DNA of 64,000 nt. Source: Pseudomonadota bacterium. Lineage in GTDB: Archaea > Thermoplasmatota > SW-10-69-26 > JACQPN01 > JAJPHT01. The DNA lies in the NCBI GenBank assembly GCA_021325135.1, contig JAJPHT010000026.1, positions 56,094 through 120,093 on the forward strand, in the 5' to 3' direction. A program made the position numbers and the translations under genes. The notes beneath the pieces were generated by a model that was not told where the DNA came from, did no database searches, and saw only the letters and a list, made by a program, of their open reading frames with translations. This document shows positions 5,762 to 13,605 of this stretch, in pieces. Positions within the stretch are counted from its first letter, which is position 1. Every line of letters begins with the position of its first letter.

Positions 5762-8098
5762 ATGACCTCGAAGCCTACCTCGGAAGTCGTCTGGGCGCAG
5801 AACATCGGCAAGGATGATATCCCGCTCGTGGGCGGGAAGGGGGCGAACCTGGGCGAGATGATCGGCATCGGCCTTCCGGTGCCGCCCGCGTTCGTGGTGT
5901 CGGCGCCGGCGTTCCACCATTTCCTGGTGGAGTCGGGCGTCGCGGAGAAGGTGTTCGGCGACCTGGCGCGGCTCGACGTGGAGGACAGCAAGGCGCTGCG
6001 CGAGGCCAGCGAGCGGGCGCGGGAGCTGGTGCTCAAGGCGAAGCTGCCGCCCGCGCTGGAGCGGCAGATCCGCGACGCGTACCGCTCCCTGGCGAAGTCC
6101 GAGGGGGGGAAGGACCCGCTGGTGGCGGTGAGGAGCAGCGCGACGGCGGAGGACCTGCCGGAGGCAAGCTTCGCGGGCCAGCAGGACACGTACCTCAACG
6201 TGCGCGGCGAGGATGCCCTGCTGGAGCACGTGCAGCGCTGCTGGGCGTCGCTCTACACGCCGCGGGCGGTCTACTACCGCGTGAAGCACAAGTTCCCCCA
6301 CGAGAAGGTGGCCATCGCGGTGGTGGTGCAGATCATGGTCGACGCGGCCAAGGCGGGCGTCATGTTCACGCGGCACCCCACGACGGGCGCGGACAGCACG
6401 CTCATCGAGGCGGCGTGGGGGCTGGGCGAGGGGGTCGTGAGCGGCAACGTCACGCCCGACACCTACGAGGTGGGCGCGGACGGGAAGCCCACGAGCGTGC
6501 GCGTCGCGTCCAAGGAGACGATGTACGTGCGCGGCAAGCAGGACCGGACGGTGGTCGAGGCCGTGCCGGGCAACAAGAAGCAGGCGCGCGTGCTCTCGGA
6601 CGAGGAGCTCAAGCAGCTCCACAACCTGGGCCGCGCCATCGAGAAGCACTACGGAAGCCCGCAGGACATCGAGTGGGCGATGTCGCAGGAGGGCGTCCTC
6701 AACGTCCTCCAGGCGCGCCCCATCACGACGCTCAAGGGCAAGCCGGGCGGCTCCGCGGCGGCTCCGCAGGCGGCGGGCTCGGGGGCGGCTTTGCTATCAG
6801 GCCTCGGCGCGAGCCCGGGCGTCGCGGTGGGCAAGGTGGCCATCATCGCCAACGTCGAGCAATTGGAGAAGTGCAAGCCCGGCGACATCCTCGTGACGCA
6901 GATGACGATGCCCGACATGGTCCCGGCGATGAAGCGCGCGGCGGCCATCGTCACCGACGAGGGCGGGATGACGTGCCACGCGGCCATCGTGTCGCGCGAG
7001 CTTGGCGTGCCCGCGGTGGTGGGCACGAAGCAGGCCACGAAGCGGCTCAAGGACGGCATGGTGATCACGGTGGACGGCGAGAAGGGCACCGTGACCGAGG
7101 GCGGCGCGCCCGCGCAGAAGGCGGGCGAGGCGGGCGCGATGCCGGAGCGCCCCATGCCCAAGGTGGGCGCCTCGAAGCCCGTGACCGCGACGCAGGTGAA
7201 GGTCAACATCAGCATGCCCGAGGCCATCGATCGCGCCCTCGCCACGGACCCGGACGGCGTGGGTCTGCTGCGCATCGAGCACATCGTCCTGGGCCTGGGC
7301 AAGCACCCCCTCACGTTCATCCGCGGCGGCAAGGAGCAGGAGTACGTCGACTACCTCGTGAAGAGCATCAAGACCGTCGCGGAGCCCATGTACCCGCGCT
7401 CCGTCTGGGTGCGCACGCTGGATGCGCCCACCGACGAGTTCCGCCAGATGGAGGGCGGCGAGGGCGAGCCCCACGAGCACAACCCCATGCTGGGCTGGCG
7501 CGGCATCCGGCGCGGCCTGGAGCAGCCGGAGCTTCTGCGCGCGGAGCTGAAGGCCATCCGCAAGCTCCTCGACCAGGGCGTCACCAACGTGGGGATCATG
7601 CTGCCCCTCGTGCAGCACCCCCACGAGATCCGCCAGGCGAAGCAGATCGCGCGGGAGTGCGGCATCGAGCCCCACAAGGACTGCGAGTTCGGGATCATGA
7701 TCGAGATCCCCGCGGCGGCGCTGGTCATCGACTCGCTCCTGGACGAGGGGCTCGACTTCGTGAGCTTCGGCACCAACGACCTCACGCAGTACACGCTGGC
7801 GGTGGACCGTAACAACGAGAACGTGGCGCGGCTCTACAACGAGTTCCACCCCGCGGTGGGCAAGCTCATCGAGATGAGCATCAAGGCGGCCCGCGCGCGC
7901 GGCGTGCAGACCAGCATCTGCGGCCAGGCCGGGAGCAACCCCAAGTTCGTGGAGAAGCTCGTCGCGTGGGGCATCACCAGCGTCAGCGCCAACATCGACG
8001 CGCTGGCGCGGGTGCGCGAGACCATCGCGAGGACCGAGCAGCGCATGCTCCTCGACGCGGCGCGGTCCAAGGGGGGTTCGGGGGGCGCAGCCCCCTGA
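5762..8098 (+). CDS. ppsA: Phosphoenolpyruvate synthase
   Basis: GGKGANLGEM, AVRSSATAEDLPEASFAGQQDT, GGMTCHAAIVSRE (phospho-His), EHNPMLGWRGIR, SFGTNDLTQY. Confidence 0.97.
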   Translation: MTSKPTSEVVWAQNIGKDDIPLVGGKGANLGEMIGIGLPVPPAFVVSAPAFHHFLVESGVAEKVFGDLARLDVEDSKALREASERARELVLKAKLPPALERQIRDAYRSLAKSEGGKDPLVAVRSSATAEDLPEASFAGQQDTYLNVRGEDALLEHVQRCWASLYTPRAVYYRVKHKFPHEKVAIAVVVQIMVDAAKAGVMFTRHPTTGADSTLIEAAWGLGEGVVSGNVTPDTYEVGADGKPTSVRVASKETMYVRGKQDRTVVEAVPGNKKQARVLSDEELKQLHNLGRAIEKHYGSPQDIEWAMSQEGVLNVLQARPITTLKGKPGGSAAAPQAAGSGAALLSGLGASPGVAVGKVAIIANVEQLEKCKPGDILVTQMTMPDMVPAMKRAAAIVTDEGGMTCHAAIVSRELGVPAVVGTKQATKRLKDGMVITVDGEKGTVTEGGAPAQKAGEAGAMPERPMPKVGASKPVTATQVKVNISMPEAIDRALATDPDGVGLLRIEHIVLGLGKHPLTFIRGGKEQEYVDYLVKSIKTVAEPMYPRSVWVRTLDAPTDEFRQMEGGEGEPHEHNPMLGWRGIRRGLEQPELLRAELKAIRKLLDQGVTNVGIMLPLVQHPHEIRQAKQIARECGIEPHKDCEFGIMIEIPAAALVIDSLLDEGLDFVSFGTNDLTQYTLAVDRNNENVARLYNEFHPAVGKLIEMSIKAARARGVQTSICGQAGSNPKFVEKLVAWGITSVSANIDALARVRETIARTEQRMLLDAARSKGGSGGAAP

Positions 8099-9772: not shown

Positions 9773-11230
9773 ATGGGACGCAAGCAGGAGAACTTCTCCG
9801 AGTGGTACAACGAGCTGGTCGAGAAGGCCGACCTCATCGACAAGCGCTACCCCATCAAGGGCATGGACGTCTGGAGGCCCTACGGCCTCAGCATCATGCG
9901 CGCCATCGACCGCTACACCCACGAGGAGATGGCCCGCACCAGACACCAGGAGGTGCAGTTCCCCCTCTTCATCCCGCAGACGGAGTTCAACAAGGAGGCC
10001 GAGCAGATCAAGGGCTTCGGCGGCGAGGTCTACTGGGTGACCAAGGGCGGCAACAACGACCTGGACGTCCCCCTGGTCGTGCGCCCCACCTCCGAGACGG
10101 CGATGTACCCCATGTTCAGCCTGTGGGTGCGCTCGCACAAGGACCTGCCCCTCAAGGTCTACCAGATCGTCTCCGTGTTCCGCTACGAAACGAAGCAGAC
10201 GCGCTCGTTCATCCGCGTGCGCGAGATCCACTTCTTCGAGGCGCACACCGCGCACGACACCTACGAGGACGCCGAACGGCAGATCCACGAGGACGTGCAG
10301 ATCTGGGCGCGCCTCGCGGAGAGGCTCTGCCTGCCCTACGTGCTCAGCAAGAGGCCCGACTGGGACAAGTTCCCCGGCGCGCACTACTCGGTGGCCGCGG
10401 ACGCCATGCTCCCCGAGCTCAAGACGCTCCAGGTCGCGACGTTCCACCACTACAAGGACAACTTCGCGAAGGCCTACGACATCAAGTACGAGTCGCAGGA
10501 CTCCACGCACGTCTTCGCGCACCAGACGACCTACGGCATGAGCGAGCGCCTGCTGGGCGCCATCATCAGCGTGCACGGCGACGACAAGGGCCTCATGCTG
10601 CCCCCCGCCGTCGCGCCGCACCAGGCCGTCATCGTCCCCATCCTGTTCAAGGGCAAGGAGGCCGGCGTCATGGACGCCGCGCGCCACCTGGCGAACCTCC
10701 TCCTCGCCGCGGGCTTCCGCGTCCACGTGGACGACCGCGAGGAGACGGCGGGCTTCAAGTTCAACGACTGGGAGATGCGCGGCGTGCCCGTCCGCATCGA
10801 GCTGGGCCCCAAGGACGTCGAGAAGGCCCAGTGCGTCATGGTGCGCCGCGACAACGGCCAGAAGAGCTTCGTCGCGCAGGCCGACGCCGCCAAGGGGCTC
10901 GCCGAGACGCTGGCCTCCTACGCCGACGGCCTCGTGAGCCGGGCGTGGAAGACCATGACCGAGAACGTCCGCGACGTCAAGACCGCCGAGGAGGCCAAGA
11001 CCGTCTCCGGCATCGCCCGCGCCGGCTGGTGCGGCAGCGACGAGTGCGGCCAGAAGATCCAGGCCGTCACCGAGAAGACCGTCCTGGGCGTGCCCCTGGA
11101 CGTGGCCTTCCCCTCCTTCAAGGAGGAGGCCCACGGCAAGCTCGTCCTCCCGGGCAAGGGCTTCTCGGGCCACTGCGCGGCGTGCGGGAAGGCGACGACG
11201 ACGCCGGTGCACATCGCGAAGACGTACTGA
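9773..11230 (+). CDS. proS: Prolyl-tRNA synthetase (archaeal/eukaryotic type)
   Basis: FSEWY, RPTSETAMY, FRYETKQTRSFIRVREIHFFEAHT, GMSER, HGDDKGL, C-terminal Zn-binding domain ending AKTY. Confidence 0.97.
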   Translation: MGRKQENFSEWYNELVEKADLIDKRYPIKGMDVWRPYGLSIMRAIDRYTHEEMARTRHQEVQFPLFIPQTEFNKEAEQIKGFGGEVYWVTKGGNNDLDVPLVVRPTSETAMYPMFSLWVRSHKDLPLKVYQIVSVFRYETKQTRSFIRVREIHFFEAHTAHDTYEDAERQIHEDVQIWARLAERLCLPYVLSKRPDWDKFPGAHYSVAADAMLPELKTLQVATFHHYKDNFAKAYDIKYESQDSTHVFAHQTTYGMSERLLGAIISVHGDDKGLMLPPAVAPHQAVIVPILFKGKEAGVMDAARHLANLLLAAGFRVHVDDREETAGFKFNDWEMRGVPVRIELGPKDVEKAQCVMVRRDNGQKSFVAQADAAKGLAETLASYADGLVSRAWKTMTENVRDVKTAEEAKTVSGIARAGWCGSDECGQKIQAVTEKTVLGVPLDVAFPSFKEEAHGKLVLPGKGFSGHCAACGKATTTPVHIAKTY

Positions 11231-11402
11231 GGCTTCTTGGGGTCGGGCCGACCCCTCCATCTGAAATCCCTCAGCGTAGCCGCTGTTCCGATGGAGTCTC
11301 GTTCACCGGAAGCGCACGATGCATAGACCCACCGGTTCCATCGGAACCAGCCGATGCATATAGCGCACCGGTCGCGGTTTCGACTTATTAGAACGCTTCC
11401 GC

Positions 11403-11423
11403 CGAAAATGATATCGCCACCGC
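11403..11423 (+). promoter_or_regulatory. BRE/TATA-like promoter candidate for the structured element
   Basis: CGAAAATGATATCGCCACCGC; resembles ACATATTTCGCCACCGC (~12987) and ATGATATCGCC (~36292), which precede + strand genes. Confidence 0.45.
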
Positions 11424-11435
11424 GCGCGTAGTAGG

Positions 11436-12055
11436 GGTTGCCTCCTTGGAGGCGCAACGCGCGCAGGCGCCAAGGCCGGACCCGGCGACGGGGCTGGACG
11501 AAGCGTCTGCGGAACGACGCCGGCTCGGCATGCGCCGCCCCGACACGCGATTCGAACGCGGGGACGGGCACACGCGCGCGCCGGCGGGGCAGCCGCAACT
11601 CGAGCGAAGGACTGCCCGCCCCCGTCCGCAAGGGCCCGGGTCCGTTCAACCGCCCCCTCCGGAACCCGCCGGCGAACCACCCCGGCTTCGGAGGAACACG
11701 CCACGAACCCGCCGAACTGACGGCAGGCCGCGCGTCCGTGTGATGGATCGCGGCCCATCGCAGACCGGCGCTGATCTCAGCGCCCCTGCGACCCCCTCCG
11801 ACGCGCGAGCGTCGGGGAGCCCCGGCAAGCATGCACCGTGGAGCCGGGGGCCGGCCGAGGCCTGGCCAGGCCAAGGCGGCGGGACGGGTTCTCCCCGCTC
11901 GTAGCCGAGCGGGGACGACCGGCCAGCCCCACCCCCGTGGGGCCCGCCACCGGACAAGCCTCGTGCCGAGGGAGTCCGGAGCGCCCGCGCCCCGCGCGGG
12001 AGGACCGGTCGGTGGCAGGCGGCTCCGCGTCGCGCCTCCAGGAAGAGCACCTTTT
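11436..12055 (+). ncRNA. Candidate large structured non-coding RNA (~600 nt), family unknown; strand tentative
   Basis: No credible ORF; 11448-11461 pairs with 12026-12039; many nested helices; A about twice T on + strand by hand count; ends in CACCTTTT. Confidence 0.65.
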
Positions 12056-12112: not shown

Positions 12113-12958
12113 GTGCGCGTCCTGCCCTTCGCGCTGCTGGCCTTCCTGGCCGCGGCCCTGGCGCTTCCGAGCCCCTTCGCCCTCTGGGCCCTGAGGCCTG
12201 TGCCCGATCCGCACCAGGCGTACCTCGACGCCCGGATGCTCGCCTCCGCCGCGCGCGTCGTGGCCGCGATTCTCTTCCTGGCGGGCGCGGTCGCGCTGGC
12301 CTTCGCGGTGCGGCGCGGAGAGGCTGCGCTCCCGCGGGCGCTTCCCGTCCTCGCCCTGGCGAGCCTTGCCCTGGGCGGCGCGCTCCTGAGCCCCTGGGGT
12401 TCCAGCCTCGCGACGGACTCGATCCACGAGCGCTACGAGCGCGGGGGCTTCCTGAAGCCCTACCCGGACGTGGACCTCGCCCGCGGCCCGCTGCCCAACG
12501 AGACGTACTTCGCCTTCACCGGATCGCGCGAGGTCTCCAACGTGACCGCGCCCATCGACGTGGGGCCCGTCCACGCGCGCCGGGGGGACGTGTGGGACGT
12601 CGGGACGAGGGGCGACGGAGCGGGATGGCCGGGCGACGGTCGCCCCGCGATCTCCAGCGACTTGCCCCTGCGCTGCGTTCCCGGCCCCTTCCTCGACGAG
12701 AGGAGCGACGCGCGCTCGCCCCTCGTCGTCTCATGGTGGCGCTGCGTCGCGCTCGCCTCCGGCGACGCGAGGGTGCAGGTCTCCCTGCCAGGGCCTGCGC
12801 CTGGAACCGTCGTCGTGCTCGTGAACGTCCTCCCCAGCCTGGATGCAGCGGTCGCGACCACGCTCGCGCGGTCGGAGGCCCTCCTTGCGCTTGGCGTCGC
12901 GGCCGCGGCGGGCGCGGGCGCGTGGGCCGTGAAGAGGCGCGAATCCCGTCCGCGCTGA
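12113..12958 (+). CDS. Hypothetical membrane protein with extracellular loop
   Basis: Three N-terminal hydrophobic segments and a C-terminal anchor; AATAAATA box about 25 nt upstream. Confidence 0.6.
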   Translation: MRVLPFALLAFLAAALALPSPFALWALRPVPDPHQAYLDARMLASAARVVAAILFLAGAVALAFAVRRGEAALPRALPVLALASLALGGALLSPWGSSLATDSIHERYERGGFLKPYPDVDLARGPLPNETYFAFTGSREVSNVTAPIDVGPVHARRGDVWDVGTRGDGAGWPGDGRPAISSDLPLRCVPGPFLDERSDARSPLVVSWWRCVALASGDARVQVSLPGPAPGTVVVLVNVLPSLDAAVATTLARSEALLALGVAAAAGAGAWAVKRRESRPR

Positions 12959-13047: not shown

Positions 13048-13605
13048 GTGCTACCTACGTTGAGATCCAGATCGATCGCTGTCGCGCTCCTCCTCTTTTC
13101 GGTCGTCACGCTGCCTGCGGTCCAGGCGGACTCCATCGCCTCCCCGGAGCGCGCCCGTCCCCTCGACACGCTCTGCTTCCTGCTTCCCGTCGCGCCGGGC
13201 GCGGTGCAATCGGAGCAGTGGTGCGCGAAGGCGCTGCGCGGGACCCCCCTTGACGAGATCCTGGCCAACGCCCCCGAGCCCTTCGCGTCGAGCCACACCA
13301 ACGTCAACCTCGGCGTGGACTACGAGAACTCGAACCTCGGCGGGGCCTCGTTCACCTGGTGGGGCACCACCGGCTGCACGTCCAGCATCAGCTACATCGG
13401 CAACTATCCCGCCGAGTGGGTGGACCGGGTCTCGTCGGCCATCGTCGTGTCCGGAAGCGGATGCAACTGGTTCTACCACTTCAACGACAACGACGAGAGC
13501 GGCAGCTACTACTACTGCGGGCTGACCGTCCACAAGTGCGACCAGGACCAGCTCTACATCCAGGGGTTCGACAACGCGGCCAACTCGATGCGCATCACGG
13601 CCTGA
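13048..13605 (+). CDS. Secreted protein with C-terminal beta/gamma-crystallin-like domain
   Basis: Signal peptide; WVDRVSSAIV and GFDNAANSMRI match the (W/F)-N-D-x-x-S-S-x-x-V Greek-key motifs. Confidence 0.6.
   Translation: MLPTLRSRSIAVALLLFSVVTLPAVQADSIASPERARPLDTLCFLLPVAPGAVQSEQWCAKALRGTPLDEILANAPEPFASSHTNVNLGVDYENSNLGGASFTWWGTTGCTSSISYIGNYPAEWVDRVSSAIVVSGSGCNWFYHFNDNDESGSYYYCGLTVHKCDQDQLYIQGFDNAANSMRITA

Follow-up and report, generated by a model that had tools for sequence, protein, structure and literature searches.

It is rare to meet a large structured RNA whose function is unknown, and such RNAs frequently prove to act as catalysts or machines. In the literature we searched, the ornate ones that self-assemble are from bacteria or phages. 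OLE RNA of the Bacillota is about 600 nt long and forms an RNA-only dimer, in which the intermolecular bridge B3 is supported by a palindrome that switches from GGCC to GAUC or AGCU (PMC12286853). ROOL and GOLLD are nanocage RNAs of 550-830 nt (PMC12286853, PMC12990946), and HYERs are ORF-less group IIC intron ribozymes; palindromes mediate the dimerisation of HYER1 and HYER5 (PMC12990946).

The locus described here lies in a 64,000-nt stretch of DNA (the window) from a Thermoplasmatota archaeon with a 3.77-Mb genome of 72% GC (G000; C-numbers denote contigs). Proteins encoded next to the RNA have Thermoplasmatota names too. An earlier note on this DNA had read the gap between proS and the next gene as encoding a large ornate non-coding RNA in the size class of OLE and ROOL. 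That reading is supported by our analysis. Size and ornateness are indeed alike, but membership of either family is not borne out; covariance models of OLE, ROOL and GOLLD give no match at E<=5-10, whether in the window copy, in the homologous copies or in the distant elements described below.

Like OLE, the window RNA combines a similar size with a chromosomal stand-alone gene and an ornate multi-stem fold, and it may share the symmetric loop in which one palindrome replaces another. It differs in being archaeal, in its helix order and in lacking both an Rfam or sequence match and a conserved neighbouring partner gene, and its dimer is a prediction. It resembles ROOL and GOLLD in size range (590-880 nt here, class-wide elements included), pseudoknots, kissing loops, abundant GNRA loops and variable peripheral arms, and its covariation-backed large fold is a feature of OLE, ROOL and GOLLD alike. 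Unlike ROOL and GOLLD, it sits in a chromosomal housekeeping context rather than in a phage or prophage, has no adjacent tRNA cluster, carries a putative dedicated two-box promoter and shows no sequence match to them. HYERs are of comparable length (about 600 nt) and some form palindrome-based dimers, whereas the window RNA has neither a domain V nor any group II match in Rfam.

A probable RNA gene downstream of proS

The gap is bounded by proS (9773-11230) and the next gene start at 12113. The earlier note saw no ORF with the codon bias of the host, and all ORFs in the gap do score negative per codon against the usage of their own genome (-0.32 to -0.79 vs +0.66 for proS). The A excess it counted on the plus strand is equally present (A:T = 92:55 across 11436-12055 and 87:46 within the closed core), and all the motifs it listed occur where it placed them, TTTT (12052-12055) and the local stems among them. 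Compared with shuffled sequences, the gap folds with z -5.8 on the plus strand and -3.8 on the minus strand. The element itself reaches z -5.1, while 23 control windows have a mean of -0.17 (sd 1.0, minimum -3.0), and z ranges from -3.8 to -11.2 across all nine full-length copies. It is single-copy in the host genome. Rfam gives no match at E<=10 for the window copy, and literature searches returned no description of this RNA. We conclude on sequence grounds that the locus very probably holds a conserved structured RNA gene (Table 1).

Two genes without Pfam match (12113-12958 and 13060-13605) separate the RNA from a hydrolase-NUDIX pair. Both are missing from the corresponding position in the metagenome assembly L226, and the second has a lower GC content, a signal-peptide-like start and several cysteines. 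In L227 (8001-14592, relative), a NUDIX-hydrolase followed by an integrase and a pentapeptide gene lies near proS, with no RNA match; judging by this assembly, the site that follows proS appears to be a hotspot for rearrangement. The 64,000-nt window contains no tRNA genes. Elsewhere in the genome (G000 C15 c46271-46358), ARAGORN calls a tRNA-SeC and, with introns allowed, a different tRNA at the same spot; the tRNA-SeC call is probably spurious.

Table 1. Features of the RNA gene and its promoter, in window coordinates.
Feature	Position	Strand	Remarks
Upstream box A, operator-like, core CAnCGGAARC	11302-11325	+	-75/-76 from TATA-like box
Upstream box B, 35 bp after box A	11337-11360	+	Related to box A
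Core promoter candidate: TTATT 11385-11389, CCGCCG 11399-11404, A/T-rich 11405-11414	11379-11414	+	Orientation predicted
Putative 5' leader	11415-11447	+	End repeats P1 3' strand; alternative hairpin 11440-11453 possible
Structured RNA core, 592 nt, closed by P1 (11448-11455/12032-12039)	11448-12039	+	Fold z-score, copies, covariation
P2 arm with inner GNRA hairpin	11462-11511	+	Double changes at 5/7 outer pairs
5' domain closed by P3 (11512-11517/11642-11647)	11512-11647	+	P3 double changes at 4/6 pairs
Long-range pseudoknot 11526-11531/11963-11968	11526-11968	+	100% paired in 9/9; one pair A-U/G-C/G-U
Site S1	11566-11571	+	GAGCTC in 8/10 copies; GGGCAC in window copy
S2, palindromic loop CTCGAG of hairpin 11587-11617	11599-11604	+	
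Nested long-range helices, 3' half	11650-12022	+	Four helices
Kissing loop: hairpin loop CCAC 11677-11680 with GTGG 11838-11841	11677-11841	+	10/10 copies
Hairpin S3	11767-11784	+	Homologue loops palindromic: CATG x5, GATC x2, ATAT x1
Hairpin S4, self-complementary GGCC loop	11859-11872	+	14-nt perfect palindrome in window copy
3' tail: GCAC then U-tract, terminator candidate	12046-12055	+	GCAC in 8/9 copies

Homologous copies in changing gene contexts

Across 10 assemblies we found 11 copies of the RNA, with 67-90% identity in the aligned columns. Of four genomes from the same genus, BLAST recovered copies in three, one of which (G001) has two in tandem, and six further copies were located in metagenome assemblies by following the neighbouring genes (L226, L229, L230 and L231; L234 and L250 partial). 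Nine copies are full-length, at 587-700 nt. They occupy at least three contexts: after ribH and before aspC, near a NUDIX-cutA pair, and after proS. The ribH-aspC site is empty in other assemblies, and neighbours are common to G000, G003 and L226. Promoter, RNA and tail move as one unit among these contexts, which argues against a leader or cis-element of a single gene as well as against a dispersed repeat. A cis-regulatory leader or riboswitch was ruled out since the gene 3' of the RNA differs between copies or is convergent, and the RNA has its own pyrimidine tail.

The tandem copies of G001 are 86% identical and both keep the fold. Two diverged copies each are present in G001 (C25; L026 3116-3815 and 4276-4974) and in the more distant genome G018 (C202 and C308; L394 and L398), with an own promoter at each where visible, possibly reflecting selection for dosage or hetero-assembly. 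In spacers near the RNA gene of several assemblies, short imperfect tandem repeats of 6-9 nt form inverted arrays (L027 ~2580-2780, L229 ~1660-1780, L230 ~6750-6830).

Among the best 20-150 candidates scored per genome, models of the RNA body matched nothing outside the genus apart from the promoter in G013. Pattern scans of metagenomes and GTDB contigs gave mostly GC-rich noise, and among the matches listed the profile recognised only the known G002 copy. Scans of viral, phage and plasmid sequences found no true copy. L194, L209-L211, L402 and L331 were rejected as chance matches or matches inside genes.

A covariation-backed fold

A plain MAFFT alignment of the nine full copies gives a consensus of 16 helices with 86 pairs. 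In it, 89% of cells are paired and double changes occur at 37 of the 86 pairs, compared with 16.7 in shuffled and 8-16 in slid alignments; the structure derives from the same alignment as was counted and the nine related sequences are few, so we take this as support rather than as a p-value. The earlier note had named a lack of homologues with compensatory changes as a refutation, and such homologues exist. It had raised the minus strand as an alternative. Minimum free energy hairpins in ten copies have 50 GNRA loops on the plus strand and two on the minus strand, and a pyrimidine tract follows the terminal stem on the plus strand, which settles the matter for plus.

The ends pair as proposed (11448-11461/12026-12039, 13 of 14 pairs with one A-C). 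The 5' domain holds the 5' strand of the pseudoknot, site S1 and the hairpin with S2. The nested helices of the 3' half are 11650-11653/12019-12022, 11700-11703/12013-12016, with double changes at all four pairs, 11705-11711/11885-11891, and 11917-11924/12002-12010, which is compensated in a hand alignment and misregistered in the pair count. A hairpin loop contains CCAC in all ten copies, its stem usually differing from one to another, and the GTGG partner is present each time. This core is invariant and does not covary, so the kiss is backed by conservation only.

Other pairings from the single sequence had to be revised. A 9-bp helix 11477-11485/11636-11644 is complementary in the window copy but not in the homologues, where its 5' strand forms a local GNRA hairpin and its 3' strand pairs with 11512-11517. 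The CGGGTTC strand (11885-11891) of a proposed helix was correct, but its partner is the second GAACCCG at 11705-11711 rather than the one at 11662-11668. A T-loop-like motif suggested for the minus strand is real in some copies only; its core is palindromic (TTCGAA) and reads on both strands.

Self-complementary loops

Several hairpin loops are palindromic in most copies. Seven copies have CTCGAG at S2 and one has CTGCAG; in G002 and G003 this loop is non-palindromic. The S3 palindrome is imperfect in the window copy and lost in G002. The GGCC loop of S4 is invariant in all nine copies, on changing stems. A pairing of this loop with a downstream GGCC strand was dropped, as that strand sits in a compensated helix, which leaves the loop free. 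On the tree, the loops, which were chosen after the fact, have changed from one palindrome to another about three times and have lost the palindrome in a few cases. Loops that stay self-complementary despite sequence change would match the signature of the OLE dimer bridge. Palindromes of at least 10 nt show no overall enrichment (p 0.02-0.9), and the signal is positional. For this reason our confidence in the oligomer is moderate; we consider it an even question whether the RNA forms a homo-oligomer.

A candidate two-box promoter

Box A has a fixed position in 12 loci, including one in a genome of another family, and is the top-scoring PWM site in its genome. The box pair is unique in the 3.77-Mb genome. 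Single box sites elsewhere in it show no excess over a reversed-genome control (29 vs 59), and no regulon emerged above control. TTATT is invariant in 12 of 12 loci, with the boxes at a fixed distance from it in all copies. General archaeal promoter geometry relates these elements to the start, and their spacing suggests transcription from near 11415. The earlier note had marked a promoter-like site at 11403; among the candidate promoter elements TTATT is the best conserved, and the 11403 site is missing in G001. Read on the minus strand, the core promoter box also looks like a tRNA-type BRE-TATA, in the manner of the host tRNA promoters. A minus-strand frame of 18 codons runs over the boxes in three copies and is broken in others (by eye).

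The upstream boxes bear what we take to be a resemblance to the ORB core. Neither the box pattern nor a match to our ORB patterns lies beside either cdc6 gene, and a replication-origin reading of the boxes finds no support there. A canonical-looking ORB-type sequence does occur between genes at a distance of 40 kb from cdc6 (G000 C45 ~27968). Single box-like sites, not above control, precede a small conserved gene of 90 aa (L393, G001:C5 ~15935; G000 C37 ~17800), presumably UPF0058-like, which may share a regulator with the RNA gene.

Promoter-linked elements across the class

The two-box promoter also heads closed, structured elements of 680-880 nt in six further genomes of the class. The one in G013 was found first, by a 5' model and pattern (E 5e-11 before joining the model). 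The promoter profile then matches G012 (E 2.6e-5), G010 (8.4e-5) and G020 (6.8e-4), and G018 and G015 weakly, the latter two confirmed through similarity to G020. All six elements carry a terminal stem plus a pyrimidine tail, and the four tested fold with z -8.5 to -11.9 and carry GNRA or UUCG loops on the plus strand. The loci scanned have no Rfam match. The same hxlR gene precedes the G010 and G013 elements and also lies near the G003 copy, and leader motifs are common to G018, G020 and the window element. The bodies do not align with the window body (best E 0.08); in G013 the ends are closed but the P1 sequence differs, and the body scores E 0.55 with nhmmer. The non-aligning bodies leave a single family unproven, although the window RNA and these elements likely form one.

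The RNAs are thus seen in 10 of 21 class genomes, in both orders. The remaining 11, three of them 97-100% complete, gave no match in these lossy searches, nor did the promoter model match in 130 genomes outside the class, in a lossy search that scored the best 20-150 candidates per genome. It is a tentative proposal that the class carries giant archaeal RNAs (590-880 nt) with one dedicated promoter and fast-evolving bodies, which would self-assemble through palindromic loops into protein-free cages. As part of that same tentative reading, such a family would be an archaeal chromosomal, sequence-independent counterpart of the ROOL and GOLLD nanocages.

Alternative explanations

The RNA could instead act as a monomer in a ribonucleoprotein, as a protein sponge, a 6S-like regulator or a membrane-linked scaffold, with palindromic loops that are protein-binding sites or incidental. 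The evidence for a conserved RNA gene fits this equally well, palindromes lack overall enrichment, and S2 or S3 is missing in some copies. Recognition by a protein does not predict loops that change yet stay self-complementary, and no protein gene accompanies the RNA across contexts; we regard the monomer as possible but rather unlikely. A ribozyme or domesticated selfish-RNA relic, group II- or HYER-like or derived from a retro-element RNA, is improbable. Similar size, palindrome-mediated dimers of HYER1 and HYER5 (PMC12990946), patchy presence, tandem duplication and the leader repeat of the P1 3' strand, a possible processing switch, speak for it; yet Rfam group I and II models match neither the window copy, homologues nor distant elements, exon context, reverse transcriptase and nuclease are all absent nearby, and invariant bases lie mostly within helices.

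The other two candidates fail direct tests. A DNA element would account for the invariant 8-bp inverted ends, the empty ribH-aspC sites and the boxes that presumably recall ORB. It could be a MITE-like insertion whose terminal inverted repeats are P1, or a structure of single-stranded DNA, for instance an origin bearing ORB-like boxes. MITE and REPIN candidates were nonetheless rejected, and the refutation foreseen by the earlier note failed: there is one copy per genome, and the flanks are not direct repeats and show no target-site duplication. Promoter and tail are conserved outside the repeats, neighbours are shared among copies, the box pattern is missing at both cdc6 genes, and the RNA-type GNRA loops and G-U substitutions point away from DNA; we regard a DNA element as very improbable. 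Least credible is a paralogue that has diverged from RNase P or SRP RNA, despite an end-to-end P1 and a pseudoknot joining 5' and 3' regions that recall the outline of RNase P. Full-length genes for both lie elsewhere in the genome: the archaeal RNase P model (RF00373) matches C34 only (E 9.8e-19) and the archaeal SRP model (RF01857; helix 8 motif, about 300 nt) C5 only (99.9 bits). Neither matches the locus at E<=1, and the P4 motifs CR-I and CR-V are not conserved in the alignment. The earlier note, too, had excluded RNase P, SRP RNA and group II introns. The RNase P RNA itself (G000 C34:57542-57927) is long, at 386 nt, and scores 68.5 bits, under the Rfam gathering cut-off of 84, so standard annotation would miss the gene.

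Proposed model and significance

Our best reading of the sequence is that the locus encodes a large ornate archaeal RNA of a new family. A standalone gene would give rise to an independently transcribed non-coding RNA of roughly 625-640 nt, with a dedicated regulator binding the two fixed upstream boxes and controlling the TATA-like promoter. Comparative analysis supports a multi-domain fold whose ends are closed by P1 and which is locked by the pseudoknot and kissing loop. Self-complementary hairpin loops would then pair between copies into an RNA-only dimer or higher oligomer. We speculate that the assembly, expressed under certain conditions, acts as a scaffold or cage holding proteins or RNAs. 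The reading as an independently transcribed, self-assembling RNA is about as probable as all else together, and the scaffold or cage function by itself is a guess we make with reserve.

The promoter offers a search handle linking lineage-specific RNAs that sequence search misses. A chromosomal RNA family in archaea whose fold is backed by covariation, for which candidate bridges can be named and whose promoter is unique, would be a ready target for cryo-EM, and it makes testable whether RNA-only multimers are general among large RNAs, a question left open by the preprint of PMC12286853.
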